Source: an uncultured Gammaproteobacteria bacterium
Lineage (GTDB): Bacteria > Patescibacteriota > Microgenomatia > Levybacterales > GWA1-39-11
Assembly: GCA_964409875.1 (NCBI GenBank)
Contig: CAYPEN010000001.1
Location: 1,313-65,312, forward strand
Direction of reading: 5' to 3'
Length of the DNA: 64,000 bases
Shown here one piece after another: positions 1 through 63,566 of this stretch (the stretch's first letter is position 1; each line of letters opens with the position of its first letter). The notes under the pieces are model-generated. The model saw only the letters and a list, made by a program, of their open reading frames with translations, was not told the DNA's origin and searched no databases. Position numbers and translations under genes: made by a program.

Positions 1-3000
1 TTGCAGCCGGTACCAATCCGACAGCATCAGTCAGTGCAACTTCAGGTTCAAATAATGGAAACGGAATTGTTATCGCCGGTGACGGTTCAATACAGTCCTT
101 AAGGAATAACACGTTAACACTTGGAGGTAATACAACAGGCAACATCACCATCAGCCCACAAAATGGAGCTGGAACGGTCACGGTCAATGGCACACTTGCA
201 GCAAAGACGAGTGGGGGTGCAACAATTGTCGTTGCTGCAAGCAACTCCTCGGCAAAAGGTAAAGCACAGGCTGACTATGTAGCAACAGGTACAAATGATG
301 ATGTAACTATCGAGTCGGCAATAGCCGCTCTCCCTGCAACTGGGGGGTCCGTGGTGTTATTGGATGGTACATACAATATCGGCAATGCTGCAGGAGACGG
401 AATTGATATTACTAAGTCGAACGTCTCAATCATAGGGTCTGGTAAGGCTACGATTCTGAAAAGACAAGGAGATACGGCTACAAATGATGGCGTTATTGCC
501 GCCACCTCAGTTTCACGTATAGCAATTGCTGATCTTGCGATAGACGGAACCAAGGCAACCTATACGGGCACACAAAATAGAGGTATTTATTTCAGTTCGG
601 CTGTTACTAATTCCCAAATCAGAAATACATACATTCACGACAATGACGGGACCGGTATTTATGTAGATTCATCAAGTAACAATAATACATTCAAAGATAA
701 TGACCTACAGTCTAACGGCGAGTACGGCGGTATTGTAATTGTCTCTTCAAATAGCAATATTATTTCGGGAAACAACCTGCAGTCCAATACTACGTATGGT
801 ATCTGGCTAGTCGCTTCAACAAATAACACGGTTACGGGTAATAATGTACAGTCAAACACCGGAACAGGTATCGAGATGTTCAACGGCGCCAACAATAACA
901 TCGTGACAGGGAATACATTGCAATCCAATACTCAAATCGGTATCTCTATTGATACAGCCAACAACAACAGCATAACGGGGAATAAGCTTTATGACAACAC
1001 CGGTAGCGGATCCAATTCATCAATCGTTCTTGCTACTGCCGACGCAAATACTATTGCTAATAACGACATTACGGATACAGCAGGAACGGGATATGCAATA
1101 AATATCTCAAACTCAGCAAGCGACAATAACTATGTGACAGGGAACCGTTATTCGGGGACAGGTGCGGCCAATATTTCAGATTCGGGTACAGGAACAATGT
1201 TAGCTTCGCAGCTTGCAAACAGCGGTAATGACCTTATTCTAAATGCAGCCCGGTATTTGGGTATTGGAACCGCAACACCCACCTCCGTTTTGAGTGTAGT
1301 GGGGGGCACTATGGGTGGTAATGCAGCTGTAATTCTCAACCAAACTGGTTCTTCCACTAATGATATTTTTGCCGCATCTTCATCGGGTACGACCAAATTC
1401 GTCATCAAAAATGATGGGACTGCTTCAACATCAGGAAATCTAGTTATCAATTCAACAGGTTCACTTCAAACCACAAATAACCAAACACTTACCCTTGGAG
1501 GGAGTTCCACAGGTGATATCGTTCTTAAGCCACGGAATGGGAGCGGTTTTGTGGGAATTGGTAATGCAAGTCCTGCCTATCCATTGGACCTTCTCTCTAC
1601 CACCAATCCGCAAGTCCGCTTCGGATATGATACTTCAAATTACATGACGCTGCAGATAGGTTCAAGCGGAGTAACAACCTTTGATGCGGTCGGGAGCGGA
1701 GCGGCATTCAACTTCAAAGATACGGTTTCGTTGGGTGTGTCAGGAGCTTCAAATGGGATTTTGCAATTTAATAATAGTGCTGGTGGAACAGCAGCAAGTA
1801 TTACTACTAACGCTTCAGGCGACTTAATTTTGCAGTCTTCAGGAGGAATTGTGAATTTGGGAGTAGGTTCGGGAGATATTACTATTGATCCCGGCACTAA
1901 TAATATAGTAGCCAATCTTACGTCAGGTAATTTCTATGGGCAGAAAAATGGAACAAGCCTTATCTCACTTTCTACATCAGGGACTCTTCCAGTTGCCTCC
2001 TTCTCCGGGACAACTTCTTTTGCAGGATTATTGGTTGATAACAGTGGGGTAGGCAATCTCTTCACCGCCTCAACCTCGGGTCTTACGAGGTTTACAATCA
2101 CTAATAATGGGACTGCTTCTTCATCAGCAGGGTTTACTATCGACGGAAATGGGGGAAATATTCAGTCAACACGAAACCAAAGTCTGACAATTGGTGGCGG
2201 CTCGACCGGGGAATTGACTATCGGTAGGACCTCGCAAAGGGTTTTTCTTCCCGGCTTTGATTGTTCGGGTAGCGGCAACGGAGGAAAACTTACGACTACC
2301 GCAGGCGGAGTCCTTACTTGTGCTGCCGATGGCGGAAGTAGCGGAGCAGCAGGTACTTGGACCCTGGATGGAACGAACGGCATTCACACTCCTATAAATA
2401 ATACAGCTGACCTTCTCGTTGGAGGGACTTCAACGCAGTCAGCCATGTTTAGTGTTTTGGGAATTGCAGCTGGTACCAATCCATCAGCATCTGTATCGGC
2501 CATCAATGGTGCAAATGCTAATAAGGGTATCTATATGGCAGGAGACGGGAGTTTGCAGAGTGTCCGCAACAACTTCCTCACCCTTGGAGGAAATACAACA
2601 GGAGATATTTATCTCAAGCCGCTGAACGGCGCAGGAATGGTGAGAATTATCCATGGCACTACCGGAACAGGTGGACTTATGCTAGGTGATTCAGAGACCG
2701 ATGCCACACAAAAGGCAGCACGTTTGAAGTCAATTCCATATAACAGTGCTTCCTCTCTTCCAATCTCAATGCTTATTGCTATCAATTCATCGACAAATAA
2801 CGTACTTAATATTGGGGGAGGTTCAAGCTCTGAGTATGCAGTAACCGATGTATATATTAAAACAGCTACCACTCAGACCACTACAGTAGGAACGACAAGA
2901 TTTTATGTTGGAGGAGCAAGCGGTTTTGTAGGAATCGGTGATACAAATACTTCTCCTGTTGCAAGGCTTGATATTTTAGATAATGCGACCGATATCAATG

Positions 3001-6000
3001 GGGAAAAACTGGTACTCAGGAGAACCGGGGCAGGAGATGTCGGTCTGTCATTCCAGCAGAATGGTATATCAGCATTCGGAATTGTTAATAGAAGTGGTTC
3101 TGGTAACGGTCTTGCATTTGTTGATAATTATTATGAAGGAAGCAATGGAACAGAAATTGCACGGTTCTATGCTTCATCAGGTGTCGGTATTGGAACGCTT
3201 GGCAATACTCCTGTTGCAACACTTGACGTAAGAGGAGTTTTTGCCAATTCAGGTACTCAGCCCGTTGCTTCATTCTCCGGAACAACTTCATTTGCCGGGC
3301 TTATAGTGGATAATAGTGGGGTAGGAGACCTCTTTACTGCCTCAACTTCAGGGTTAACGCGGTTTGTGCTTCAGAGTAATGGGGTTGCTTCAGCCTCCGG
3401 AGGATTTACCATCAACAATGCAGGGAGTCTTCAAACAACCAAAGGTCAAACCCTGACAATCGGTGGAAATTCAACAGGTGACATCTCATTTAAACCAGGA
3501 AATTCTTCAACAAGTCTGTACCTTGCCTCAACAGGGGCTATTGGGGTAAATGGCTCATTTGGGGCACTTGGCCAATGTCTTCTCTCAAATGGGGCAGGGG
3601 CGGCTGCTTCATGGGGAGGATGCGCGGCCGGTGCTGCGGGAGGATGGTTCAACCTCATCTCGTCTCAAGGAACAATTGTCCCTGTCAATCAGACCCTTGA
3701 TCTTCTCTGGGGAGGAAACTCGACCGCTTCTGCGGGCTTTAGAATTTCTGGAGCAACGAAGAACTATGGCACTGTTGCAGCCGCTTCCGTAAGCGCTAAT
3801 ACCTCATTTGCCGGCATGGTTATTGATAACCGTGGAACCGGAGAGCTGTTGACTGCCTCCTCATCAGGTCAGACACGCTTCACTATATATAACAGCGGGA
3901 ATGTAGTTATCGGAAATGGAGGCGACTCAGGATTTAGGCTTGATGTGAAAGGCTCTGTAAGGATAGGCAATAACACGACAACTGACGATATCGTGAAAGA
4001 CAGCTCCGTTGACTTTACTCAGTCGGGATATGCAATTACCACAAATGATAGCGTTAATACTGTTTCGACTTCAGAAAATCAAATCAAGCTTGTTACCGAC
4101 CTTATCGGGGCCGGAGCGTCGCTTACAGCGCCTGCCGCTGACCAGACAACAGGCACCAATGTGACGACCGGGTCTGTAGCCTTCCAGAGACCGGATAAAA
4201 AATTCGTCGTCTTTGTCGGCGGAGCCGCAACAAGCAAAATGTATGATCCGACAACAGGTACGTGGATTGCAGGTCCAAGTACTGCCGGTGCGGTATCCAT
4301 GGGTGCCGGTGCAAGGGCATTCCAGAGACAAAACGGGTCATTCCTGGTAATTCACGGCGGAGCGGCTACTAGTACAACTGTTTATTCCTCGGGTGGTTCT
4401 GCCAATTTGGGAACTGCTATTGCAGGTCCGGCGACAACAGCAGCAGTGGGAGCAGGCTCACAGATAATAAGGCGTCCCGATGGAAAAATTCTCGTTATCC
4501 ATGGAAATACCAGTACAACCTCTAGCGTTCATGACCCGGTTACCGCTACGGGTACGACTTCTTTAATTGGCACCTTTATTACAGGACCTGCAACAACGGG
4601 CAATGTGGTTGCTGGCTCATTTGTTTTCCAGCGGCCTGACGGAAAATGGATTTTGGGGCTTGGAGGAAGTACAACAACCAACCTCTATGACCCCTCTTCC
4701 TCAGGGGTCGGTGGTGGAGGCGCATTTTCAGCAGGGCCATCTCTTTCTGCAGGTGCTCCTGCAGCAGGAACACATGTTATTCAGCTTCCCGATGGTCGGT
4801 TCATGGTTCTTGTGGGTGGAAGCACGGCGACCCAGATATATGACTGGAAGTCTAATTCTTTCTCTGCCGGTAGTACGATGACTGTGACAATTGGTGCCGG
4901 CGCTCATTCTTTCCAGAGGTCTGACGGTAAGTGGGTTGTCGTAGCAGGAGGAAATTCGACAAGCCTTATGCTCTATGACCCAACGAGCGGAGCGGATGGA
5001 ACTTTCAGCAACTTAGCAAGCGGTTTGTCGGCAGCGGCAGGTGCGGGTGCTCTTACCTTCCAAAGACCGGACGGAAAATACATTGTAGTTCACGGAAATA
5101 CTGTCCAAACAACAACTCTCTATGATGCGGGGTGGAATACCACAGGAACTTGGACATCGGAGGACATTCTCAACACAAAGATTTCTACCTATTCGGCGAT
5201 GATTTGGTCGGCAAATCCACAGTCTGCGAATAACAATGCCCGGCTCGATTCTGAAACTATCAATATAGCCGTCAAGACAGGAGACACGCTTACTTCTCTT
5301 GGTAACAATCCATACAGGACTCTTCAGGATAGTGGTGACCTTATTAAGGCGTATGGAAACTCACAATACGCAAAGATTCAGGTTACGTTCACTGTCCCAA
5401 TTCGCTCATATCCCGGAGGAGCAACGGCCTATTTAGCTCAATCAAACATTTGGGACGGCGAGGGAGGTACTTTCCTTCGAAGAAGCTTTATTCAACCAAC
5501 AGTATTTAGTATGCGGATTCAAAATCCTCTTGTGAGTTATGGTGATCCGTCAGGTCAAGGAGATCCTGCTTTTGGAAGAAATTTTGCAACAGCCTCAGCT
5601 CAACTTGAGGGGGTGGGAACGGATAATTCAAACCGCTTGACACTTTTGACCCTCAGAAATCAACCAACCTCGACTGCCTCAGCAGGCATCATTATCGCCT
5701 CTGCATCGGCAAATCTTGGCGGAAATGCGGGTGCCGGTGCTCACACCATAGAGCGCAATAACGGGCAATTCCTTACGATACTTGGCGGCGGCACGACTAC
5801 AACACGCACATATGACTCTGATACGAATACTTGGTCGGCGGGACCCGATTTGCCGAATGCAGCAGGTGCCGGGGCCCATTCCTTCCTCCTTCCTGATGGA
5901 AGATTCTTCGTTGTATTGGGGAACACAACCAATAAGACTGCTATCTTTGACCCCCAGACAAGCCTGTTCTTAGCAGGACCAAACCTCTTTGGAAACGTAG

Positions 6001-8606
6001 GGACTGGTGCTAATTCATTCCAGAGACCCGATGGGTACTTCGTCATTCTCAATGGAGGAGCCACTCCGGCCACTAATATTTTAGATCCGTTCACGATGAC
6101 TGTGACCCAGGGGCCATTTACGGCTGGTGCAACCCCAAATGTAGGCGCAGGCGCCTTGAATATAAAGCGGTCTGATGGAAGAGTTACGATAATTTTAGGA
6201 AATGGTAATGCTATAGCTACAGGAACGAACGTGTACGATCCGGCTTCAAATTCGTTTGCAGCGGGACCGGCGCTTGTTGGAGGGACGGTTAATACCGGAG
6301 GCAGTGCAATACAAATTAATACGGGAAGAATTCTTCTCTTTAAGTCCACAGCTACCTCAAACTGGTATGATCCCGTCCTAAATACATTCGCCGCAGGTCC
6401 GACACCGACTGCTAATGGCGCCGGCGCATTTGTGATTCCTCGTTCTGACGGAAAGATATTCAAGGCGAACGGAGGAAACGCGGCTACAACAAATATTATC
6501 GACCCTCAGTCAGGCGTCGCAGTAACGGCCACCAGTGCTCCAACGCTTCCATGCAACATCAATACGGGTGCCCATACATTCCAGCGTCCAACGGGGGAGT
6601 ACGTTGTCATCTGTGGAGGCAGTACTGCAAATACTCTTGTTATCGATGCGGGTTGGAATTTGGGCGGAACTTATACTACGGAGCAAATCCAGGTCCCCAA
6701 CCTCAGCAGTACGAGCTCATTATTCTGGAAGAATGTAGGACAAGGGTCAATTACTGTAAAGTACAGAACTGCCGCTTCACAGCAGGCATTAGGAGTATCT
6801 TCATGGAAGGATTTACCTAAAAGCGGGTCTTATATTTCGCCAGCTGCTGGGGATACATGGATTCAAGCGAGGTTTGATTTGCAGGGAGTATTGCAGGATT
6901 TGCCGGGTGCAAAAACAAGAGTATGGAACGGGTCTGATGCGGGTGGTGGAATGGTCTATTACCGCTCAGTTCAGGCGCCAATACTTGAGTATTGGAAACT
7001 CATCAATATACAAGACCCGACGCTTTTGACTCTTTCAAGCGGTGGAGATAATGTGTTCCGTTTCTCCTCGGACGGTCAAGCATATACCTCTGACAATGGA
7101 GCATGGAATTCAGGAGGCGCCGACCTTGCAGAGCGCTATCAATCCCAAGATAGCCTTGTTGCAGGTGAAGTTGTATCTCTTGACAGGTTCCATCCGCAGA
7201 ACACCCGTCGCGCAACTACAGCTTATGACCAGAATGCCATGGGGGTTGTTTCGACTCAGCCCGGATTTGTTGCAGGTGCTTACACCGAGAATTCGTACCC
7301 AATTGCGCTTGTCGGACGTGTGCCTGTCAAGGTAAGCAATGAAAATGGAGAAATTCACGCGGGTGACTACCTCACTTCAGCCTCAATTCCAGGATATGCG
7401 ATGAAAGCAACCGTTGCAGGTCGGGTCATAGGTCAGGCGATGGAATCCTTCGACTCCGCTCAGGACCATGGGACTTCCAACCTGCAGGATTGTCCTAAAT
7501 TCGGTGCCGGAAATCTGACGGCAACACGATGCGGAACCATAACAGTATTTGTGAACCTGACCTCCTACAATGGCGAATCCGTAGACGTTGCCATGAAAGA
7601 GAATGGGTACGCCCTCAAAGAGGAGGAGTTACCCGCAATTTCCGGGATGGACTTTTCTGAAGGAACGGATGCAAGGCGCCAACAAGAAGTGCTCGGGTTC
7701 CTAAAGACCCAAAAAGATAACGGGCAAAGTATCTATACGGATAGAATTGCTGCAACGCAGGAGGTTATAAGTCCGCAGATTGTGACCGACCTTTTGGTCG
7801 CAAAGAAGATAAAGGCCGAGTCTATCGAAGGGCTTGAAATCATCACTAACTCAATTGAGAGGCTAACAGACCAGGTTGGAACAGGTAGTGCTATCCAGAA
7901 TTTCTCAGATAGGCTTACGATGTTAAGCCTTACTCAGAAAGACTTTGAAACTCAGGTTTCATCATTATCTGCAAAACTTGACAAGATAAGCTCACTTAAC
8001 CTCCTAAGCTTTATTGCCCAGGGCTCGACAAGCGGAGAGCTAACCATGGTCAACAATTTTGCTTCCTACGGCACGACAACGCTCTCAGAGGCCTCTGTAA
8101 TGAACACAATAACAATTGGTACGGGTTCTACCCTCAACCTTTCAAATAACTCACTGTACACGCTTGGAGACGACCTTTCTATACAGCCATTCAGACAGGG
8201 CGGCGTCAACTTCCTCGGTGGACTCATCAGCTTCGACACAGATGGGAAAGCGGTATTTAAAGAGGACGTTACCTTTGAAAAGAATGTGGGCGTTGCTGGT
8301 GTTCTTTCGGCCAAAACCGTTGCCTCAACTGAGCTTCAACTCGGCCAGGGAACAACGACCGTTATCTCAGATACGGAAGTAACGGCTACCGCCGCTGCAG
8401 GCCTTGTTACTTTGAAGAAGAACACAGACCACGTCAAGGTCAACAATCCGCTCGTACGTGACAATTCGTTCATATTCATAACTCCAAAGACCAAGACTGT
8501 CCTGCAACTGTTCTTGCTCGACCAAGCTGAGGGTACATCATTCACCGTCGGAGTAGACGGCAAATCCACAGAAGACATCAAGTTCAATTACCTCATCGTC
8601 AACTGA
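1..8606 (+). CDS. giant secreted/cell-surface repeat protein, 5' end outside window (>2860 aa): right-handed parallel beta-helix repeats, ~130-aa tandem modules, ~20 Kelch-like propeller blades, tail-fibre-like C-terminal region with coiled coil
   Basis: Frame 3 is open from nt 3 to the stop at 8604-8606. The ORF track starts at 351 only because it needs a start codon. Residues encoded at 3-350 (LRNNTLTLGGNTTGNITISPQNGAG) repeat the internal module seen later (VRNNFLTLGGNTTGDIYLKPLNGAG), so the gene starts upstream. N-terminal part: NosD/pectate-lyase-like repeats (GNNLQSNTTYGIWL, GNNVQSNTGTGIEM, GNTLQSNTQIGISI). nt about 4040-6540: about 20 tandem ~48-aa units with FQRPDGK...GG...YDP, a Kelch-type blade signature. 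C-terminal part: SGGADLAERY block, then heptad-like coiled coil and a final beta-rich domain. Confidence 0.8.
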   Translation, partial: AAGTNPTASVSATSGSNNGNGIVIAGDGSIQSLRNNTLTLGGNTTGNITISPQNGAGTVTVNGTLAAKTSGGATIVVAASNSSAKGKAQADYVATGTNDDVTIESAIAALPATGGSVVLLDGTYNIGNAAGDGIDITKSNVSIIGSGKATILKRQGDTATNDGVIAATSVSRIAIADLAIDGTKATYTGTQNRGIYFSSAVTNSQIRNTYIHDNDGTGIYVDSSSNNNTFKDNDLQSNGEYGGIVIVSSNSNIISGNNLQSNTTYGIWLVASTNNTVTGNNVQSNTGTGIEMFNGANNNIVTGNTLQSNTQIGISIDTANNNSITGNKLYDNTGSGSNSSIVLATADANTIANNDITDTAGTGYAINISNSASDNNYVTGNRYSGTGAANISDSGTGTMLASQLANSGNDLILNAARYLGIGTATPTSVLSVVGGTMGGNAAVILNQTGSSTNDIFAASSSGTTKFVIKNDGTASTSGNLVINSTGSLQTTNNQTLTLGGSSTGDIVLKPRNGSGFVGIGNASPAYPLDLLSTTNPQVRFGYDTSNYMTLQIGSSGVTTFDAVGSGAAFNFKDTVSLGVSGASNGILQFNNSAGGTAASITTNASGDLILQSSGGIVNLGVGSGDITIDPGTNNIVANLTSGNFYGQKNGTSLISLSTSGTLPVASFSGTTSFAGLLVDNSGVGNLFTASTSGLTRFTITNNGTASSSAGFTIDGNGGNIQSTRNQSLTIGGGSTGELTIGRTSQRVFLPGFDCSGSGNGGKLTTTAGGVLTCAADGGSSGAAGTWTLDGTNGIHTPINNTADLLVGGTSTQSAMFSVLGIAAGTNPSASVSAINGANANKGIYMAGDGSLQSVRNNFLTLGGNTTGDIYLKPLNGAGMVRIIHGTTGTGGLMLGDSETDATQKAARLKSIPYNSASSLPISMLIAINSSTNNVLNIGGGSSSEYAVTDVYIKTATTQTTTVGTTRFYVGGASGFVGIGDTNTSPVARLDILDNATDINGEKLVLRRTGAGDVGLSFQQNGISAFGIVNRSGSGNGLAFVDNYYEGSNGTEIARFYASSGVGIGTLGNTPVATLDVRGVFANSGTQPVASFSGTTSFAGLIVDNSGVGDLFTASTSGLTRFVLQSNGVASASGGFTINNAGSLQTTKGQTLTIGGNSTGDISFKPGNSSTSLYLASTGAIGVNGSFGALGQCLLSNGAGAAASWGGCAAGAAGGWFNLISSQGTIVPVNQTLDLLWGGNSTASAGFRISGATKNYGTVAAASVSANTSFAGMVIDNRGTGELLTASSSGQTRFTIYNSGNVVIGNGGDSGFRLDVKGSVRIGNNTTTDDIVKDSSVDFTQSGYAITTNDSVNTVSTSENQIKLVTDLIGAGASLTAPAADQTTGTNVTTGSVAFQRPDKKFVVFVGGAATSKMYDPTTGTWIAGPSTAGAVSMGAGARAFQRQNGSFLVIHGGAATSTTVYSSGGSANLGTAIAGPATTAAVGAGSQIIRRPDGKILVIHGNTSTTSSVHDPVTATGTTSLIGTFITGPATTGNVVAGSFVFQRPDGKWILGLGGSTTTNLYDPSSSGVGGGGAFSAGPSLSAGAPAAGTHVIQLPDGRFMVLVGGSTATQIYDWKSNSFSAGSTMTVTIGAGAHSFQRSDGKWVVVAGGNSTSLMLYDPTSGADGTFSNLASGLSAAAGAGALTFQRPDGKYIVVHGNTVQTTTLYDAGWNTTGTWTSEDILNTKISTYSAMIWSANPQSANNNARLDSETINIAVKTGDTLTSLGNNPYRTLQDSGDLIKAYGNSQYAKIQVTFTVPIRSYPGGATAYLAQSNIWDGEGGTFLRRSFIQPTVFSMRIQNPLVSYGDPSGQGDPAFGRNFATASAQLEGVGTDNSNRLTLLTLRNQPTSTASAGIIIASASANLGGNAGAGAHTIERNNGQFLTILGGGTTTTRTYDSDTNTWSAGPDLPNAAGAGAHSFLLPDGRFFVVLGNTTNKTAIFDPQTSLFLAGPNLFGNVGTGANSFQRPDGYFVILNGGATPATNILDPFTMTVTQGPFTAGATPNVGAGALNIKRSDGRVTIILGNGNAIATGTNVYDPASNSFAAGPALVGGTVNTGGSAIQINTGRILLFKSTATSNWYDPVLNTFAAGPTPTANGAGAFVIPRSDGKIFKANGGNAATTNIIDPQSGVAVTATSAPTLPCNINTGAHTFQRPTGEYVVICGGSTANTLVIDAGWNLGGTYTTEQIQVPNLSSTSSLFWKNVGQGSITVKYRTAASQQALGVSSWKDLPKSGSYISPAAGDTWIQARFDLQGVLQDLPGAKTRVWNGSDAGGGMVYYRSVQAPILEYWKLINIQDPTLLTLSSGGDNVFRFSSDGQAYTSDNGAWNSGGADLAERYQSQDSLVAGEVVSLDRFHPQNTRRATTAYDQNAMGVVSTQPGFVAGAYTENSYPIALVGRVPVKVSNENGEIHAGDYLTSASIPGYAMKATVAGRVIGQAMESFDSAQDHGTSNLQDCPKFGAGNLTATRCGTITVFVNLTSYNGESVDVAMKENGYALKEEELPAISGMDFSEGTDARRQQEVLGFLKTQKDNGQSIYTDRIAATQEVISPQIVTDLLVAKKIKAESIEGLEIITNSIERLTDQVGTGSAIQNFSDRLTMLSLTQKDFETQVSSLSAKLDKISSLNLLSFIAQGSTSGELTMVNNFASYGTTTLSEASVMNTITIGTGSTLNLSNNSLYTLGDDLSIQPFRQGGVNFLGGLISFDTDGKAVFKEDVTFEKNVGVAGVLSAKTVASTELQLGQGTTTVISDTEVTATAAAGLVTLKKNTDHVKVNNPLVRDNSFIFITPKTKTVLQLFLLDQAEGTSFTVGVDGKSTEDIKFNYLIVN

Positions 8607-8629: not shown

Positions 8630-9070
8630 CAAATTTTTAATTTTTAAACAAATAAAAATGACAAAAGTAGAAAAAAGATACGACTTAGAAGAAAGAACGG
8701 CAGTTTTTGCAGAAAATGTTATAGCGCTTTGTAAAAGAGTGAAAAAAGACGTTGTTTTACCGCCTCTTATAAGTCAATTAGTACGTTCTGCAACAAGCAT
8801 TGGAGCAAATTACTGTGAGGCAAATGGAGCATCTTCTAAGAAAGATTTCACAAATAAAATCCATATCTGCAAAAAAGAAGCAAAAGAAACAATGTATTGG
8901 CTGAGGATTTTGGGTTCTAGCACTGAAGACCAAAAAGAAGAATGTAGGATTTTATGGAAAGAATCACATGAACTAGCACTCATCTTTGGAAAAATAGCAA
9001 CCAATTCAAAGCAAACAGGTTTAGAGCTTAGAAATTGAAATTTGATTAAAAATTTTAAATTAAAAATTTG
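8630..9070. repeat. AT-rich cassette bounded by imperfect terminal inverted repeats, carrying the four-helix-bundle gene
   Basis: Left end caaatttttaatttttaaa (8630-8648). Its reverse complement tttaaaaattaaaaatttg matches the right end ttttaaattaaaaatttg (9053-9070) with a 2-nt indel. Related cargo-less AT-rich copies lie at 50449-50565 and 52335-52440. Confidence 0.3.
8658..9038 (+). CDS. four-helix-bundle protein (23S rRNA intervening-sequence protein family)
   Basis: 126 aa. Family hallmarks are FAENVIALCKRV, QLVRSATSIGANYCEANGASSKKDFTNKIHICKKEAKETMYWLRIL and a C-terminal helix. Typical size for the TIGR02436-like family. Confidence 0.8.
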   Translation: MTKVEKRYDLEERTAVFAENVIALCKRVKKDVVLPPLISQLVRSATSIGANYCEANGASSKKDFTNKIHICKKEAKETMYWLRILGSSTEDQKEECRILWKESHELALIFGKIATNSKQTGLELRN

Positions 9071-9765
9071 AATTTGAACAAGATTATGAACAAATTAATC
9101 AATATGAAACAAGTTATTTTTAGCTATTTTTCCTCGCCATAGGCGAGAGGAAGGAGGTGAAGATATGTGGCACAAAAAGCATTAAAGAAAGTACGAAAAC
9201 AAGTGAAGCTTTTCGTGTATTTCTTGTCAGCATCATACGCCAATTAAATTAGTAGCTAGAAGCTAGAAGTTAGTAGTTAGCAGAAAGAAGAGTATATAAA
9301 GCCTCAAATTTCTTCAACAACTACAAGAAAACTTCAGTTACTGCCAGTTTTCTTTTTGTTAAAAACTAATAACTAGCGACTAATAACTAATAACTATTGT
9401 TATGAAAGACTGCCCAGAAATCGAAGAGCTTTTGCTCAGAGTCATCGGAGACGATGTCGTGGGTTTTTTTGAGAGAAAAGCCTCAACATCAGAACAGGAA
9501 GTGAGGGTATTCACGCCTGTATACAGCAGTACAAAGTCGCAAGGCTTGGTCAATTAACGCAGAGCAAAAGCAAACCATAACTCCGGTTAGCCCCAGCCTC
9601 GCGTAGACAACGAGTCTAGGCGGGCCGGTTTGCTTTTGGGGAAGCGTTTTCGATCCGATGATAGAGTAAAGTGAGTTTTTTAAGCTTCGATTTGGAGGGT
9701 AGGTATTCCTGTAGAAAGAGCGAATTGACTTCCATTTCACTATCTACTATATTCTGGCTATTGCC

Positions 9766-10758
9766 ATGGTAAGAATAATTATTATTGTACTAATATCTCT
9801 TGGAATTGGTTTTGTTTTGGGTAAATATGTATTCACTGCCAAGAGTTCATCGGTGCAAGCTCTTCCGGAAAAAGATCTGCGGGAGGTAAGAGAAAGTGGA
9901 TATAAGTTCATTAGCCCCCTATTGGAATGTGAAACCGGAAAGGATTATTACAAGCTCAACGGGCTTGATTCCCTGCAAAAAGAAGTAGAGGATTTCGTAA
10001 CCAAAGAGAAAAGTGTTGGAACTATTACCGACGCTGCGGTTTATTTTCGTGATCTTAATAACGGGCCATGGTTTGGGGTAAATGAGCATGTAGCATTCTC
10101 ACCTGCGAGCCTTCTGAAGCTTCCTGTGATGATGGCTTATTATAAGAAAGCAGAATCCGATCCAGAATTCTTAAAAAAGAAGGTTACATATGAGGCAAAA
10201 GATGCACTTCTAGGTCAAAATATTGCTCCTAAAGAGTCATTGCAAATAGGAAAATCCTATACTTTCGAAGAATTACTCGAGAGGATGATGGTATATTCGG
10301 ATAATGCTGCATTAACTCTTCTCGAGGATAATATCGATCCAAAGCTTATTGATAAAGTAACTCTTGATCTTGGGGTTGAGACAGCAAATGAAACTACACC
10401 TGTTAATTTTATGAGCGTGAAGGGGTACGCTGGACTTTTCCGAATACTTTATAATGCCTCATATCTTGAAAAAGAATTTTCAGAGAAGACACTTCAGATT
10501 TTGAGCAATTCAGAATTTATGAATGGAATTGTAGCCGGTGTGCCGAAAGACGTGGTTGTTTCACACAAATTTGGGGAACGGCAGCTGGAGGAAAATTCAT
10601 TCCAGCTTCATGACTGCGGAATTGTATATTACTCAAAGGGCCCATACCTAATATGCATTATGTCTCGAGGAAATTCAATGCAAAATCTCGAGCAATTTAT
10701 AAGTAAAATTTCGGAAATTACCTATAACGGCATTCAAAAGCGGAGAGATTCAAAGTAG
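9766..10758 (+). CDS. class A beta-lactamase-like serine hydrolase, N-terminal membrane anchor
   Basis: 330 aa. N-terminal TM helix. SxxK motif (FSPASLLKLP), SDN motif (YSDNAALTL), KTG-like HKFGE. Confidence 0.7.
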   Translation: MVRIIIIVLISLGIGFVLGKYVFTAKSSSVQALPEKDLREVRESGYKFISPLLECETGKDYYKLNGLDSLQKEVEDFVTKEKSVGTITDAAVYFRDLNNGPWFGVNEHVAFSPASLLKLPVMMAYYKKAESDPEFLKKKVTYEAKDALLGQNIAPKESLQIGKSYTFEELLERMMVYSDNAALTLLEDNIDPKLIDKVTLDLGVETANETTPVNFMSVKGYAGLFRILYNASYLEKEFSEKTLQILSNSEFMNGIVAGVPKDVVVSHKFGERQLEENSFQLHDCGIVYYSKGPYLICIMSRGNSMQNLEQFISKISEITYNGIQKRRDSK

Positions 10759-10806
10759 CCGGAAAATCTAATTGACAGCCAATAGGCGCGGGAATATATT
10801 GTAAGA

Positions 10807-11766
10807 ATGCACCGGTTCTTGACAATAGGTTCTGTTGTCGTTTTTATTACGAGTCTTGCAATTAACGCTTATTTTTTTAACTCCTATGTAAAAACCCTGG
10901 GGCTTGTGAAAAGCCAGAAAAATTACGAGGAAAATCTTCAGAAATATCCGTTTCTTGCATCCCGTACGCTCATGGATAAGCATGGAGATTTTTTGCTTAA
11001 TTTCCTTGATTTGAGGGAAAAGTTACACCAAATGGCAGACCCCTTGGGGGACAAAATTGAACTTTATTTTGAGTATCTTCCTACAGGCACTTCAATTGGC
11101 ATTAATTCAGGCAACAATTTCTTTGCTGCCTCGCTTTTCAAACTTCCGGTGGTGATGGCATACTTCAGGCATAAAGAGAAGGTGACATCAGCGCAAGATT
11201 ATAAAGTAAAACTTACGAAAGATATGCTTGACAACCGGTTTGGGGATTTATGGCAGAAGGGGGAAGGGTATGAGCTTGACTTAAATGAAGCAGCACGTCT
11301 TGCTCTTGAAAAATCGGACAACACGGCCGCAAAAGCGCTTGGAACAGTTATAACTCAGGACGATTTTGATGATGTATATTTGGGGGTTGATGTTGACCTT
11401 CAGATTGCAAGCGAAGGAGCGGTCATGACTACAAAGAAATATTCCTCAATCCTCAAGGCGTTATACTTTTCTGCAGTTCTCACCAGGGAGGATTCCCAGA
11501 CAATTCTTGATTATCTTTCCCACTCCGAATTTAACGATAAGCTTGTCGCAGGTATACCAAAAGATGTTACTGTGGCGCACAAAATAGGTGTTATTGATGA
11601 AAAGTCTTATATGGATTGCGGAATAGTATATGTGCCCTATAGACCTTATATGCTGTGCATGGTATCAAGCGGAACAGAGGAAGAAGCACGTGTGCGCATG
11701 AGCAGGATTTCCAAAACCATCTATGAATATGTCGTCAGTGCAAAAAGTCCGGCTCCGGAAAATTAG
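10807..11766 (+). CDS. class A beta-lactamase-like serine hydrolase (tandem paralog)
   Basis: 319 aa. Same architecture: TM helix, AASLFKLPVVMAYF (SxxK), EKSDNTAAKAL (SDN), AHKIGV (KTG-like). Collinear with the upstream paralog. Confidence 0.7.
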   Translation: MHRFLTIGSVVVFITSLAINAYFFNSYVKTLGLVKSQKNYEENLQKYPFLASRTLMDKHGDFLLNFLDLREKLHQMADPLGDKIELYFEYLPTGTSIGINSGNNFFAASLFKLPVVMAYFRHKEKVTSAQDYKVKLTKDMLDNRFGDLWQKGEGYELDLNEAARLALEKSDNTAAKALGTVITQDDFDDVYLGVDVDLQIASEGAVMTTKKYSSILKALYFSAVLTREDSQTILDYLSHSEFNDKLVAGIPKDVTVAHKIGVIDEKSYMDCGIVYVPYRPYMLCMVSSGTEEEARVRMSRISKTIYEYVVSAKSPAPEN

Positions 11767-11772
11767 GAATTC

Positions 11773-11802
11773 TTGACAGGTAACTTCTCCTTTTTCTATA
11801 GT
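11773..11802 (+). promoter_or_regulatory. sigma70-like promoter (TTGACA-18-TATAGT) for the first LytR_C gene
   Basis: TTGACA at 11773-11778, 18-nt spacer, TATAGT at 11797-11802. ATG at 11812 gives a very short leader. Confidence 0.45.
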
Positions 11803-11811
11803 AGAACTACC

Positions 11812-12570
11812 ATGAAAAAGCCTGCCCTTAAGAAGAGCTCCAAAGAAAAAGAAGATATTTCCAAAATTGTTTCAGAAATTGTTGAGGAGAACGAGAAAGA
11901 AGAGAGGGAAGATGAGGTTGCAGAAATTCCTGTGGAGCTTGATGAGAGTGAAAAGGAGACCGAGGTAACAGAGGAAAATAAGGAAGGAGTCGGTGAGCCG
12001 GAGAATGAAGAACAAGCCGATGAAGTAACTAGGAGATCTTCATTTTACGAGAAGGTGATGGGGGAGAAGCCTCCTGAACGGCGGGATGAGGTGAAAGAGG
12101 AAAAAAAAGAGCGGTCAATTAACACAAAGCTATTCCTGCTTGGTGCTTTTGTTTTTGTTCTCACCGTTCTTATTGCTTCAATGGCGGGATTGGCAATACT
12201 CAATAAAGACATGCTTTTTACCCAGCTTTCAAAGAAAACTGTAAAGCCTACGCCAACCGCCGCACTACCTACCCCTACGCCATTTGCAATCCAACGCGAC
12301 AAATGGCAATTTGAAGTTCTGAACGGAAGTGATACACCAGGAGTGGCGGCAAAAGGTTCAGAAAAAGTAAAAGCATTAGGTTACAAAGTTACTAAAGTAG
12401 GGAATACCGATGCAACAGTAGATGCTGCACAAATTTCTTTCTCAAAAGACGCAAATGAGGAAGAAAAGAATGCAATTTTAAAAGACCTAAAGCCCGAATT
12501 CGGGGATGTTGCAGTAGGCGAAGCGCTTTCTGATACGGAAAAGACAGTCCGTCTAATCCTTATAAAATAA
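11812..12570 (+). CDS. membrane protein with acidic low-complexity N-region and C-terminal LytR_C domain
   Basis: Preferred start MKKPALKK at 11812 (ORF track 11773) because of the promoter spacing. E/K-rich region, one TM helix (LFLLGAFVFVLTVLIASMAGLAIL). C-terminus WQFEVLNGSDTPGVAAKGSEKVKALGYKVTKVGNTD...VRLILIK matches the LytR_C pattern. Confidence 0.6.
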   Translation: MKKPALKKSSKEKEDISKIVSEIVEENEKEEREDEVAEIPVELDESEKETEVTEENKEGVGEPENEEQADEVTRRSSFYEKVMGEKPPERRDEVKEEKKERSINTKLFLLGAFVFVLTVLIASMAGLAILNKDMLFTQLSKKTVKPTPTAALPTPTPFAIQRDKWQFEVLNGSDTPGVAAKGSEKVKALGYKVTKVGNTDATVDAAQISFSKDANEEEKNAILKDLKPEFGDVAVGEALSDTEKTVRLILIK

Positions 12571-12624
12571 GCTTCTTTTGCTCTTACGCATTCAGCGGCA
12601 AGTGAACAAGTGTAACTCTTTTCC

Positions 12625-12654
12625 TTGACAGTATCCTTTTTCAACGGGTATTAT
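12625..12654 (+). promoter_or_regulatory. sigma70-like promoter (TTGACA-18-TATTAT) for the second LytR_C gene
   Basis: TTGACA at 12625-12630, 18-nt spacer, TATTAT at 12649-12654. ATG at 12664. Same architecture as the promoter at 11773. Confidence 0.45.
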
Positions 12655-12663
12655 TATCAAGCC

Positions 12664-13581
12664 ATGAAAAAAGCTGCCCGCAAGAAGAAGGAATCTTTTT
12701 TTGAGTCCACTTCGACGAAGCATGGGTACGGCGAGAAAGTTGAAGAACAAATTGCAGAAGTTGTCGTTCCACAGGAGGAAAAAAAGATGAAAGGCACGTT
12801 TTTTGGCCGGTTTTCAAGCAAGCGTTTTCAAATAGGCGCATTTCTCCTACTCTCATTTATCATCGTTGCAGTGCTGGTAGGATATAACTGGCTGCAAAAT
12901 GGAAAACAGACTGTCGGAACAGATGGAAAATTAAATTCGGCTGCTGTTAAGGCTCTGATTGACGAAGTAGCAGATAAAATGGAACTTCCTCAAAATGAAA
13001 CTCCTACTATTGCAACCGTTACCGATGTTACAAAACTTGCCGACCAGCCGTTTTTCAGAAATGCAAAAAATGGCGACAAGGTGATGATTTATGGTTCGAC
13101 AAAGGAAGCAATTCTGTACCGCCCCTCTAATCACAAAATTATCGCGGTTGCACCCATCAATGCAACTGCAAATCCTACCGGTACACCTGTAGCCCAAGCA
13201 ACAAATGTGACCGGTACCCCTACTGTTTCTGTTACACCCTCAGTTTCAGTTACCCCAACTCCCACAAAAGAGGCTGAAAAATTGAAAGTTGTGGTGCTTA
13301 ATAGTACTAAAACAGCGGGTCTTGCCAAAAAAGCTGCTGATATGCTGGATAAGGAGAAATTCAATGTATTAAGTACCTCAAATGCCCAAGGAGAATATAA
13401 AACAACCAGCGTTTCAAGCGTTTCAAAAGACAAGAAGGTTACCGATTCGGACCTTAAATCAATTGCAGCGACATTTTCCAAAGTAAAAGCAAACGTTTCG
13501 TCACTTCCATCTGGCGAAGCTGCACCTGCAGGTGCTGATGTGGTTGTAATTGTGGGTAGTGACTTCTCCGATTCATATTAA
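12664..13581 (+). CDS. membrane protein with C-terminal LytR_C domain (tandem paralog)
   Basis: Start MKKAARKKK at 12664 (ORF track 12625). TM helix IGAFLLLSFIIVAVLVGY. T/P/V-rich linker. C-terminus KLKVVVLNSTKTAGLAKKAADMLDKEKFNVLSTSNAQ...VVVIVGSDFS is LytR_C-like. Confidence 0.6.
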   Translation: MKKAARKKKESFFESTSTKHGYGEKVEEQIAEVVVPQEEKKMKGTFFGRFSSKRFQIGAFLLLSFIIVAVLVGYNWLQNGKQTVGTDGKLNSAAVKALIDEVADKMELPQNETPTIATVTDVTKLADQPFFRNAKNGDKVMIYGSTKEAILYRPSNHKIIAVAPINATANPTGTPVAQATNVTGTPTVSVTPSVSVTPTPTKEAEKLKVVVLNSTKTAGLAKKAADMLDKEKFNVLSTSNAQGEYKTTSVSSVSKDKKVTDSDLKSIAATFSKVKANVSSLPSGEAAPAGADVVVIVGSDFSDSY

Positions 13582-21119: not shown

Positions 21120-21299
21120 ATGGCAAAAAAATCTAAAGGAACACGACTTACACTCGGGCTGCAATGTACCGTTTGCAAGAATGTGAATTACATAACGGAG
21201 AGAAATAAGCTCAATACGCCGGAAAAATTAAATCTCAAGAAGTTCTGTAATTTCTGTAAGAAAATTCAGGTACATAAAGAAAGAGAAAAACTTAAATAG
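21120..21299 (+). CDS. rpmG: 50S ribosomal protein L33
   Basis: 59 aa, not in the ORF track because it is under the length cutoff. MAKKSKGTRLTLGLQCTVCKNVNYITERNKLNTPEKLNLKKFCNFCKKIQVHKEREKLK, with two CxxC pairs and the conserved NTPE(K/R)L(E/N)LKK(F/Y)C core. Confidence 0.85.
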   Translation: MAKKSKGTRLTLGLQCTVCKNVNYITERNKLNTPEKLNLKKFCNFCKKIQVHKEREKLK

Positions 21300-21310
21300 T
21301 CCTCGACTTG

Positions 21311-21412
21311 AGCTTGAAGTCTTCGTTTCACTCGACTATAAGCAAGCTTGAAGTCTTCGTTTCACTCGACTATAAGCAAGCTTGAAGTCTTCGTTTCACT
21401 CGACTATAAGCT
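21311..21412. repeat. 34-nt perfect tandem repeat x3 (agcttgaagtcttcgtttcactcgactataagca)
   Basis: Three head-to-tail copies read directly from the sequence, immediately downstream of rpmG. Confidence 0.85.
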
Positions 21413-21536
21413 CAACACACCTGAGAAATTAAATTTGAAGAAGTTCTGCAATTTTTTGCAAAAAGATACAGACTCACAAAGAAAGAGAAAAGTTAAAGTG
21501 AGTCGTTTCTTCACTCCCATTCGGTCCTTACGCTAA
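21413..21536 (+). pseudogene. degraded duplicate of the rpmG 3' half
   Basis: Encodes LNTPEKLNLKKFCNFLQKDTDSQRKRKVK versus LNTPEKLNLKKFCNFCKKIQVHKEREKLK of the intact gene. The second Cys of the CxxC pair is lost. It is fused in frame to repeat-derived sequence (ORF 21348..21536). Confidence 0.5.
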
Positions 21537-21561
21537 GTCATTACTCATTATCATATGCGGA

Positions 21562-21585
21562 AGTTTTTTTAAAAAAACTTCCTGA
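21562..21585. terminator. stem-loop GGAAGTTTTTTT/AAAAAAACTTCC, member of a hairpin family
   Basis: Perfect palindrome followed by tgaaaagaggaagaatgtcttgg. Closely similar elements lie at 63470-63492 (with the same tail aaaagaggaagaaagtcatgg) and 43163-43183. Confidence 0.45.
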
Positions 21586-21645
21586 AAAGAGGAAGAATGT
21601 CTTGGCTCCGCTCCTATTCAGTCGCTTCGCTAGTCTTTCTTTGTT

Positions 21646-25948: not shown

Positions 25949-28900
25949 TCAATTTATCGGAATATAATTGTCCAAATCCTCTAAAGATACTTTCCCATCG
26001 TTATTAAAGTCAGCAGTCTTACCATTCCCGCTCAACTTTTCAGAACGCCATATCAAAAGGTCTGAATTGTTGACCTTATTATCACAGTTAGCATCTCCTT
26101 GAGCTTTCAGTGGGCACGATTGGGCGGTTTGAGCACCCTGTACACTGCTATATGCCGTGTTTTGTTTTTTCGCACAAACAACGCATCTGTCATCAAATAT
26201 CTTACATGCGGTACCTTTGTCCGGACAACTTCTGAATTCAGAAGAAGCTACACCTGATTCTACATCTATTCTTCTTTTCTCCATTTTGTCTCCGTTGCAT
26301 GTCCAGTAGTCATATTTCACGCCTGCAAAAGCTGCCGATACAAAAGTTTTTGTGGCATCATACACAAGTGCTACATCAGCAGGACTTATGATATATGTAG
26401 CAGTTCCAAAAATATGTTCAGAAACTTGTTGAGCAATTATTTTGTTAACTCCTTTTGATGCTAAACGTTCTTCTAGCTCATAACCCACCAACTGGGTATA
26501 CTGACCGTGGGAATAGCTAATTATGTCTTGTCTTGATGCTTCTTCAAAATCCCTATTAACAATTAGTTCGGCATAGCTTACACCAGTTTTATCTTTGATA
26601 TATTGGTATGCCGTATCAATGATTAAGTTTTTCAAACTGAATGGCATAGGGATATTCGTTCCATCACCGCAATAGAGATGTTCAATGGTCGTGTTATCAA
26701 CTACAATAGGATCTGCACATTTAACCTTTTGATCTATCTCAGTACACACTTTGTTTTCTTTCCCGCAGTCTTCTTCTTTTATGAATGGACCGGACAATAT
26801 ATTGTTTCTGCATGCGGCTGAACCCTTAGGATACCATCCGTCCTTATCGGCTATCATATTAACATAGTTCTTTCCATTTTCGCCCTGATTAATTCCGCTT
26901 GATGGGTCATCTGCGCGATTCGTTGGGGGATGGACAGTAACGTTTTCAAGAGGCCGGTCATTACATATTGCGACAAGACCCACTTGGGTACATACCTTGC
27001 CTTCTGCAGCACAATCTTTTAAAAATTTATTAAAGGTCCATTCTGTTTTTGGATTACCCGACGAATCTTTTTCACCTGTTTCAATAATTCCAAGGTTATA
27101 TATTTTGTTGCTATCATTTCCTGTCCCGCAATGATTTGTAGCATTTTCCCTTTCATCAATGTTTTTCTTATCATTCGTACTATTGTCAAGGCAAGTATAT
27201 GATTCGAAATTTCCTGCGCCGACCACCTTACACTCTTGCCCTTTTGCTTTACAGTCAATGGCATTAGGATCCAGTCTTGGTGGGTTGAGGAAATTAAATT
27301 TTTGGGTTGGGTCGTATTTAGCATTCCCAGAAGAGAGATTAAAAATAACATTATCAACGCAGGTCCAACCTTCGGATTTGAAGTAAATATATTGTTTTTC
27401 CGAGGGACCTGAAGCACCGGGAATTATGGGTTTTGGAACACAACACAACTGTGACGTTGTTGCGCAGCTAGTGGTTCCGGTGGTATAGACTTCCTCCGTA
27501 TCACTGCAACTTTGACTCAAGCCGTTAATACATCTTCCACCTTTTGACGAGCAGTCGATAGGAGCAGCTGCCTTGCAACATGCCACATCAAATCCTGAAG
27601 AATCAGAGCAATTTGTCCCTACCGTATTTTGCTGTGTTCCGGTGGTGCATGCATTAGCTAAGGTAGTAAGGCATTCATATCCGGTCCCGTATTTTTGGGC
27701 GCAAGTCGTCGAAGGGTTGGTTTGTGAAGTGGTAGATGCATTTGTCGCAGTAACTTGAGTATTACCTGCTTTACAGCACATCATTTGAAAACCTCCTGAA
27801 TTATCACAGTCGGTTCCGGTCGGGTCCTTTTGAATCCCTGCCTTGCATTCATCGGTTGATGCTATCACACATTGGTATCCACTACCGTATTTTTGAGCGC
27901 AGGTTGATGTTGGACTAGATTGGGAGGTCGTTGAAGTGTTCGAAGAAGAATTTGAAGGAGCTACTGTTGGTGCGGCTGCTTTACAGCATGCCATATCAAA
28001 TCCAGCTGTATCCGAGCAATCTGTTCCCACAGTATTTTGTTGTATACCAGATTGGCATTCAGTTGATGAAGTCGTAAGACATTGGTATCCAGCACCGTAT
28101 TTTTGGTCACAAGAGAGTAATGAGGTTGTCGGTGTTGGGGTTGGTTGGGAATAGGGTGTTGGTGTGGGTGCGGCAGCTTTGCAGCATGCTACATCAAATC
28201 CTGCTGTATCCGAGCAATTTGTCCCTACTGTGTTTTGTCGTGTGCCGGACTGGCATTCGGTAGCGGAAGTTGTCAGACATTGATATCCATATCCATATTT
28301 CTGGTCACAGGAGAGTAATGTATTTGCCGGAGTTGGAGTGGATTGATAATAAGGGGTTGGTGTCGGGGTCGCAGCCTTGCAACACGCGACCTGAAACCCT
28401 GAAGAATCAGAGCAATCTGTACCTACCGTGCTTTGTTTTATTCCCGACTGGCATTCGGTAGCGGAAGTTGTAAGACATTGGTATCCTGCACCGTATTTTT
28501 GGTCACAGGATGAAGTGACAGGCGGCGCACAGGATTCACCGGTACTGATAGGTCCAAAATATCCGTTGGGGTCAAGCGTACACCCCTGTGCATTACAGGC
28601 TTCTACATCATAGAAAATACTTAAATTAGGTGCAAAACCTGAAATCGAGAAATTGGGTTGTGAGGAGGAAATCTGTTGCTGCCCGTTGGTATAACTTCCC
28701 CAGCCGTAAATTAAATGATAAGAGGTAGCATTTGGAACGGGAGCTGCAGAGAAGGAAATTGAAATTTGATTATTAGAACAAGTTCTGTTGGCACCCATAA
28801 CTCTTGGTCCTTGTGGAGGTCCTGCAACAACTTTGCAGCACGCATATGCACCTCCTGTATTGCATGTTGTTCCTATGGCAGACTGTTGTAGGTTGGGTGG

Positions 28901-63449: not shown

Positions 63450-63469
63450 GCCTTTCCTCTGTATGGTAT

Positions 63470-63492
63470 GCGGAAGTTTTGTTTCAAAACTT
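63470..63492. terminator. stem-loop GGAAGTTTTG-TTTC-AAAACTTTC, member of the hairpin family
   Basis: One-mismatch stem. The flanks tatgcggaagtttt...aaaagaggaagaaagtcatgg are almost identical to the element at 21555-21606. Confidence 0.45.
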
Positions 63493-63566
63493 TCTAAAAA
63501 GAGGAAGAAAGTCATGGATCCGCTAAAGATAGGTTTGAAAAGCTTTTAAAGTGATATACTTCGATT

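Follow-up and report, generated by a model that had tools for sequence, protein, structure and literature searches.

A giant tailspike-like protein of a probable CPR bacterium and its internal domain distantly related to the phi29 gp12 autochaperone

The phi29 protein gp12 is a beta-helix fibre that ends in an autochaperone, domain D4 (MEROPS G2; Pfam PF11962), which is cut off at a DxAE motif. The gp12 paper reportedly suggested that bacterial adhesins might mature likewise. A relation between gp12 D4 (PDB 3SUC) and the beta-tulip fold is already in the literature (PMC7602432), and D4 of Dpo31, a marine podovirus tailspike, is a cleaved-off trimeric domain whose crystal structure was traced from Asp664 (PMC13317679). 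Here we describe the 3′ part of a giant gene at the start of a stretch of contig CAYPEN010000001.1 (the window, meaning the whole 64,000 nucleotides (nt) analysed). It comes from an uncultured bacterium, probably an ultra-small one from the Candidate Phyla Radiation (CPR) that is Levybacteria/Microgenomates-like. We think it probable, with considerable room for doubt, that the gene product is a phage-tailspike-like bacterial surface fibre, Sec-exported and trimeric, whose peptidase-G2-like module cuts itself at A2373/D2374. The individual domains are of known kinds. However, we know of no prior description of an internal, often tandem G2-like module followed by a stalk and a tip in a giant, largely CPR, exported family that Pfam mostly misses.

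The peptidase-G2-like domain and its DxAE motif

Frame 3 of the forward strand is open from base 3 of the window to a TGA at 8604-8606, giving 2,867 codons with no internal stop, and the protein of more than 2860 amino acids (aa) proposed in an initial annotation of this DNA is thus borne out. At its 5′ end the gene continues beyond the window, which holds its 3′ 8.6 kb. The frame and its G2-like features are:

3..8606, + strand: giant open reading frame (ORF), 3′ part; 2,867 codons plus TGA, 5′ end outside the window
7068..7715, + strand: peptidase-G2-like domain (phi29 gp12 D4-like, beta-tulip type), aa 2356-2571; profile searches, PF11962 in relatives, AlphaFold2 (AF2) and Foldseek
7122..7133, + strand: D2374-L-A-E2377 motif, with the predicted self-cleavage site A2373/D2374; alignment to gp12

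The protein contains both C-terminal strings quoted in the initial annotation (SGGADLAERYQSQ, aa 2370; YPIALVGRVPVKV, aa 2432). Their ADxAE-type motif had been likened to chaperone domains of the G2 or S74 type, and a Pfam search was the proposed check. For the window sequence itself, Pfam found neither G2 nor S74 in the C-terminal 567 aa or in a 200-aa piece; 5_nucleotid_C and Cupin_3 came up as sub-threshold noise and were discarded. S74 (PF13884) was without a match in the whole protein as well, and phmmer of the C-terminus against the PDB gave nothing meaningful. The link to gp12 emerged only via a family profile, not from a single sequence. This profile (A1, an alignment of 39 family sequences) matched phi29 gp12 in the PDB (6qz9, E 1.3e-4; 3gqh, E 1.6e-4; also 3suc, the E-to-Q mutant) as well as D4, the chaperone domain of Dpo31 (E 1.4e-3). 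In the A1 alignment D2374-L-A-E2377 lies on S691|D692-F-A-E695 of gp12, the known cleavage site; the cleaved-fragment chain 3gqh starts at the Asp of that site, and 3suc has Q at the Glu position. Moreover, PF11962 is matched by 22 of the 39 relatives at E<=0.1 (best E 9.4e-7), and P0074 and P0087, which are 43-44% identical to the window domain, just reach its cut-off (25.0-25.5 vs 25 bits).

Structure prediction points the same way. AF2 models aa ~2371-2570 with a predicted local distance difference test (pLDDT) score of 85-98, and Foldseek matches the model to gp12 in the PDB (3suc, E 6.2e-4; 3gqh, E 1.5e-3, TMt 0.54) and to phage 'preneck appendage protein' models in BFVD (E about 1e-10, TMt 0.58-0.65). 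The top PDB matches are beta-tulip cement/decoration proteins (Borrelia phage BB1, Pam3, TW1), and the Pfam family Phage_cement_2 is matched by 6 of the 39 relatives. Set beside the G2 family, the window domain has the DxAE motif and a D4-like fold, lies below the Pfam cut-off and sits away from the extreme C-terminus. We conclude that it is a distant homologue of the gp12 D4 autochaperone. The earlier comparison therefore stands for G2, as a distant homology, and falls for S74.

A word-indexed search with the C-terminal block found 157 homologues, and those with a named source are almost all Patescibacteria/CPR (Levybacteria, Moranbacteria, Pacebacteria, Saccharimonadales). The core common to homologues spans aa ~2368-2487; within it, D2374, A2376 and E2377 are conserved in 99%, 99% and 100% of 107 homologues. 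An exhaustive profile search returned 32,278 representatives of clusters at 50% identity at E<=1e-3 (26,254 at E<=1e-10), with proteins of up to 6,814 aa. The G2-like domain thus belongs to a very large, mostly unannotated family. Since the Pfam G2 model misses or barely reaches the window protein and its close relatives, this is an annotation gap. The domain also occurs, at ~40% identity, in virion proteins of jumbo phages such as PA5oct.

The 148 best-scoring library matches (P0162-P0309), a set biased to multi-copy proteins because scores add up, carry 2-3 tandem copies ~135 aa apart, with a median of 250 aa after the last copy. DxAE is kept in 284 of their 302 domain copies. The gap between copies is very regular (~126-144 aa, for a period of ~265 aa), suggesting a larger repeat unit of domain plus stalk. 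In P0074 a cement-like second copy is without DxAE; the fold can thus do without the motif, an argument that function is what conserves it. Across the family the tail following the domain is either 9-21 aa or 150-540 aa; in distant relatives the domain lies at the very C-terminus, with 9-21 aa following.

Architecture and genomic setting of the giant gene

The remaining features of the gene, all on the + strand, are:

3..272, + strand: partial fibre module 'AAGTNPxASVSA...LTLGGNTTG' (aa 1-90), truncated where the window begins; 67% aa identity to aa 822-882
285..1202, + strand: right-handed parallel beta-helix (aa ~95-400); Pfam Beta_helix and NosD, weak PDB matches to AlgG and NosD
1203..4097, + strand: diverged fibre-module array (aa 401-1365, ~960 aa); internal repeats, 41 homologues
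4140..5135, + strand: 7-bladed Kelch-type beta-propeller 1 (aa 1380-1711); seven FQRPDGK-type blades, 4-stranded in AF2, pLDDT mostly 70-93
5136..5687, + strand: beta-sandwich insert 1 and low-confidence linker (aa 1712-1895); AF2 beta strands, then pLDDT <50
5688..6656, + strand: 7-bladed Kelch-type beta-propeller 2 (aa 1896-2218); seven blades, Kelch_6, AF2 pLDDT 80-94
6657..7022, + strand: beta-sandwich insert 2 (aa 2219-2340), homologous to insert 1; AF2 beta strands
7716..8342, + strand: linker/stalk (aa 2572-2780) with a conserved 'ISPQIVTDLLVAKKIKAESIEGLEI' motif; low pLDDT outside the AF2 helices
7905-7997, + strand: short heptad stretch (aa 2635-2665); heptad scan, AF2 helices at aa 2615-2626 and 2634-2663
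8343..8603, + strand: C-terminal tailspike-type (K1-lyase_C/H-lectin-like) beta-sandwich (aa 2781-2867); AF2 pLDDT 84-96, Foldseek

The initial annotation had predicted a pectate-lyase-like beta-helix, and Pfam agrees, with Beta_helix (E 2.2e-17, 63.6 bits, cut-off 25.9) and NosD (E 5.3e-16, 59.1 bits, cut-off 23.6) both matching at aa ~184-395. Against PDB sequences the region gave weak matches to AlgG C5-epimerase and NosD. Judged by Pfam, it belongs to the right-handed beta-helix family, whose fold is common to polysaccharide-active enzymes such as AlgG. The following ~960 aa were correctly described as novel repeated modules: windowed self-BLAST found internal matches in aa ~400-1365 (40-67% aa identity over 55-150 aa), and aa 401-1365 have no Pfam match and no PDB sequence match. 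The modules share the recurring motifs 'vGIGT..P...LDV', 'SFSGTTSFAGLxVDN' and 'LTxGGxSTGDI'. Source-named members among their 41 homologues are mostly CPR, and some module-sharing relatives (P0144, P0160, P0161) have PF13884 (S74) instead.

Kelch-like blades are present as predicted, but they number 14 and not about 20, and they form two arrays of 7 (aa 1392-1711 and aa 1913-2218). Pfam Kelch_6 matches at aa ~1921-1952 (E 1.9e-11, 43.9 bits, cut-off 25.3). The AF2 model of aa 1365-2340 has two propellers of 4-stranded blades (pLDDT mostly 80-93), which Foldseek places with galactose oxidase and double-propeller sensors (BT4663), and a search of the propeller region against PDB sequences found nothing. 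One related beta-sandwich follows each propeller (aa 1651-1781 and aa 2159-2278 are 31% identical). The two propellers with their beta-sandwiches are likely ligand- or glycan-binding. The likeness to galactose oxidase is at the level of the fold.

After the G2-like domain come 296 aa, the last part of which is a beta-sandwich like the domains retained in mature tailspikes and fibres. A coiled coil had been proposed here. A heptad scan of the whole protein found aa 2635-2665 (about 4 heptads) as its sole heptad-like stretch, so that a short helical segment stands but a long coiled coil does not. For aa 2781-2867 Foldseek retrieved the tailspike C-termini of Pam1, K64-1 S2-4, Sf6 and K1 lyase, AP22 gp53, the R2 pyocin fibre and an H-type lectin. 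Pfam K1-lyase_C matches the window protein weakly (E 0.013, below cut-off) and its homologue P0079 well (E 1.3e-9). The tip that follows the internal domain varies among relatives (H-type lectin, SH3b or K1-lyase_C). Taken together, the tailspike-like plan of the initial annotation holds up, in that beta-helix and C-terminal beta-sandwich resemble those of Pam1, Sf6 and K1-lyase tailspikes, whereas its chaperone-type end holds only in part: the gp12-like domain is there, but it is internal and not terminal.

G, T, S, A and N make up 54% of the protein, and Cys 0.3%. The G+C content of the gene (47.6% vs 42.4% for the window) is most simply put down to this amino-acid composition. The protein as a whole has no match in PHROGs. 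Complete, it would probably measure ~3,300-3,500 aa, some ~400-600 aa being absent at the N-terminus if we judge by homologues, where the first module lies at ~aa 390-620. An exact 54-nt search of metagenome contigs for the missing 5′ end gave 0 matches, an exact-protein look-up of the 126-aa downstream gene had no match on record, and that of the next gene led to a Logan contig that begins only past the giant gene, the 5′ end being absent. Related metagenome loci are fragments, 30-60% identical.

Where fibre-module homologues have an intact N-terminus, it opens with a signal peptide (for example '...VFA|TAGINRTINFQGKV'), after which comes a conserved N-domain, 'GINxxINFQGK'. P0127 (1,367 aa, complete) has the same N-terminus and modules joined directly to a G2-like/C-terminal block that is 41.6% identical to window aa 2348-2867. 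P0127 and the other homologues therefore define a family plan of signal peptide, N-domain, modules, variable cargo, G2-like domain, stalk and tip; the cargo of the window protein is the beta-helix and the two propellers. In P0142, P0148 and P0157 and in P0145 and P0154, also fibre-module homologues, MerR/HTH_17 or phage-integrase SAM-like N-termini replace the signal peptide, an odd pairing that could represent true fusions or gene-calling artefacts.

Downstream of the giant gene lie an Avd-like 23S rRNA-intervening sequence protein gene, a pair of beta-lactamase-family genes, a pair of LytR_C genes, and genes for a CarboxypepD_reg protein and a rhodanese; farther on come tRNAs, pgk and argS. 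This synteny is shared in its first part by two further assemblies, L001 and L002 (CAZMSF010000007.1), the latter carrying an orthologue of the giant gene. On gene context, with these cellular neighbours, the idea of a prophage was rejected. The two tandem beta-lactamase-family (PF13354) and two LytR_C-domain genes (9766-13581, + strand) are conserved in the window, L001 and L002, and may constitute a cell-envelope module connected with the fibre. The record of L002, the only close genomic relative, is titled 'uncultured Gammaproteobacteria bacterium', whereas homologues with a named source are nearly all Patescibacteria/CPR; the metagenome-assembled genome label or its binning looks doubtful.

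Directly 3′ of the giant gene, 8658-9038 (+ strand) encodes the 126-aa '23S rRNA-intervening sequence protein' (PF05635, E 2e-16). The Avd accessory proteins of diversity-generating retroelements are members of PF05635, a four-helix-bundle family. The Avd-like gene is lacking at the matching position of the orthologous L002 locus. It had prompted the idea that the giant gene is a retroelement target, which we rejected: no template/variable repeat was found, no repeat of at least 45 nt connects the 3′ end of the giant gene with elsewhere in the window, and the scanned downstream genes include no reverse transcriptase. The next ~730 nt (9039-9765) hold no + strand ORF of at least 80 aa and no Rfam match at the gathering threshold; the corresponding gap in L002 is about 620 nt.

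Elsewhere in the window, 25949-29362 (- strand) is a second large ORF (1,137 aa; no NCBIfam match). In it, at 27557-28558, a 198-nt (66-aa) repeat is present in four copies, 62-79% identical and three of them tandem, and a related 85-nt core is found at 28910. It may be another repetitive surface protein. Two further pairs of intergenic-looking repeats could be common leader or promoter elements, or small paralogous genes. One pair lies 42 kb apart (21529-21612 vs 63442-63524, 74-81% identity; '...TATGCGGAAGTTTT...AAAAGAGGAAGAA.GTC.TGG.TCCGCT'), and the other is a 49-nt repeat (21205-21253 vs 21406-21454, 86% identical).

Proposed maturation and alternative readings

With the anatomy, homology, motif conservation and cellular context of the giant gene established, we infer export, trimer formation, cleavage and an adhesin or enzyme function of the fibre. 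From N- to C-terminus it would comprise the signal peptide and 'GINxxINFQGK' N-domain of its homologues, fibre modules, the beta-helix, more modules, two 7-bladed propellers each with a beta-sandwich, the G2-like domain, a short helical stalk and a distal lectin-like beta-sandwich. The G2-like beta-tulip domain would trimerise and nucleate folding of the fibre from C to N. The Asp2374/Glu2377 pair would then cut the A2373/D2374 bond, as in gp12. The resulting C-terminal fragment of 494 aa might be shed, as in phage, or be retained non-covalently as an adhesive tip.

We regard it as extremely unlikely that part of the long frame is a product of faulty assembly, whether a chimera or a repeat array that was collapsed or expanded. 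The window start and the L002 contig end do both fall within a repeated module, and many homologues are contig-truncated fragments. Window nt 1-31 and nt 2464-2494, copies of the 'AAGTNPxASVSA...LTLGGNTTG' module, are 87% alike, and the L002 contig terminates, inside the giant gene, at the equivalent of the second 'AAGTNPxASVSA' copy; assembly breaks thus seem to fall at this module and not at the blades. The initial annotation had taken the blades to be near-identical in DNA and hence a hotspot for recombination and misassembly. However, blade pairs are at most 70% identical in nucleotides (median 57%; amino-acid median 40%), the longest exact repeat within the gene is 14 nt, and its direct repeats are short and 60-87% identical. 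In the repeat regions Tandem Repeats Finder reported no arrays; its output was limited to three microrepeats of 15-20 nt, two of which lie 3′ of the stop codon. Moreover, L002 is an independent assembly, and its orthologue stays colinear for 2,059 aa (89.7% identity, four indels of 1-6 aa); P0310 is colinear with the window protein over 1,290 aa. Low blade identity together with the colinear L002 makes the blade array an implausible hotspot for homologous recombination or assembly collapse, and the colinearity itself argues that the array is neither collapsed nor expanded; as a practical correction, it is no assembly hazard. A phage or prophage origin, as a true CPR-phage tail fibre or tailspike, is very unlikely in our judgement. 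The architecture and both C-terminal domains are structurally closest to phage proteins, and jumbo-phage virion proteins share the domain, as noted above. However, no phage genes flank the gene among those seen (the downstream side only), the downstream synteny is cellular and its first part is found in three assemblies, PHROGs gave no match, and the homologues have Sec signal peptides, which virion proteins are without.

Several observations weigh against the self-cutting fibre that we favour. PF11962 does not match the window C-terminus even at E<=10, in relatives its match is confined to roughly the first 80 of its 228 positions, and the E-values of the PDB profile and fold matches are modest (1e-4 to 1e-3). 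An internal domain followed by varied tips is odd for a disposable chaperone, and the 2-3 tandem DxAE copies of many members imply either multiple cuts or a non-catalytic motif. The N-terminus is outside the window, and export of the fibre is read from homologues. Furthermore, release of gp12 D4 reportedly requires ATP (Xiang et al. 2009, Mol Cell); since ATP is absent outside the cell, this speaks for an uncleaved joint. Accordingly, the main, though unlikely, alternative is that the G2-like domain is a non-cleaving beta-tulip trimerisation joint, in which DxAE is structural (an ion or strand-capping network) and the distal beta-sandwich a permanent tip. The best Foldseek PDB matches are indeed cement/decoration proteins, trimers that are not cleaved (PMC7602432), Phage_cement_2 is found among the relatives, and the domain is internal, often tandem and succeeded by diverse binding-type tips. 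Set against this, DxAE aligns exactly on the catalytic/cleavage motif of gp12, is retained in about 94-100% of copies and is missing from the cement-like copy of P0074. A more speculative proposal, which we consider improbable, is that the DxAE beta-tulip module, rather than being a disposable chaperone, is a conserved self-cutting joint in a very large class of giant extracellular fibres, nicked after export and trimerisation while the pieces stay together. The functional analogy would be to the autoproteolytic SEA or GAIN domains that surface proteins of eukaryotes have. If true, episymbiotic CPR would have a fibre with preset break or release points, which could let it shed its adhesive or lectin tip or leave that tip behind on the host.

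CPR/Patescibacteria lead attached lives on other cells, and this gene shows their giant surface proteins reusing the construction of phage tailspikes, with a relative of the self-cleaving gp12 domain among the parts. Should the cleavage prove real, many of the giant proteins that metagenomes predict would be processed into several chains, and their size, assembly and function would need rereading.

Comparison with described systems

The propeller region resembles galactose oxidase and GlxA in having a 7-blade Kelch propeller followed by a beta-sandwich (Foldseek E about 1e-12). However, identity is only 12-13%, and here the unit is doubled and set within a fibre. The last 87 aa share their fold with the C-terminal beta-sandwiches of tailspikes (K1-lyase_C, PF24146; Sf6, Pam1, K64-1 S2-4) and with H-type lectins; in phage tailspikes, unlike in the window protein, these follow directly on the beta-helix and are retained in the mature spike.

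The G2-like domain has the fold of the beta-tulip cement/decoration proteins (Phage_cement_2; BB1, Pam3, TW1 gp56, the lambda gpD group), which also trimerise (PMC7602432). However, those are small free-standing capsid proteins with neither DxAE nor cleavage. In Dpo31 D4 (PDB 28nb), DYAE aligns with DLAE, and the domain starts at the motif Asp, is trimeric and is split off by cleavage in expressed protein (PMC13317679). Dpo31 differs in being a phage protein with the domain at its C-terminus and with no downstream stalk or lectin-like tip.

With phi29 gp12 the window protein shares a beta-helix fibre, a beta-tulip-type domain and its fold, and DxAE at the cut position. For the window protein the similarity shows up by profile only and extends over roughly the initial third of the Pfam model. 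In the A1 alignment, the helical stretch that gp12 D4 has inserted between its two conserved beta segments is much shorter here. Moreover, the domain is terminal in gp12, whereas in the window protein it is internal, ahead of the stalk and tip. Lastly, the window protein is cellular, presumably exported and about four times longer than gp12, and its relatives often carry the domain in tandem.

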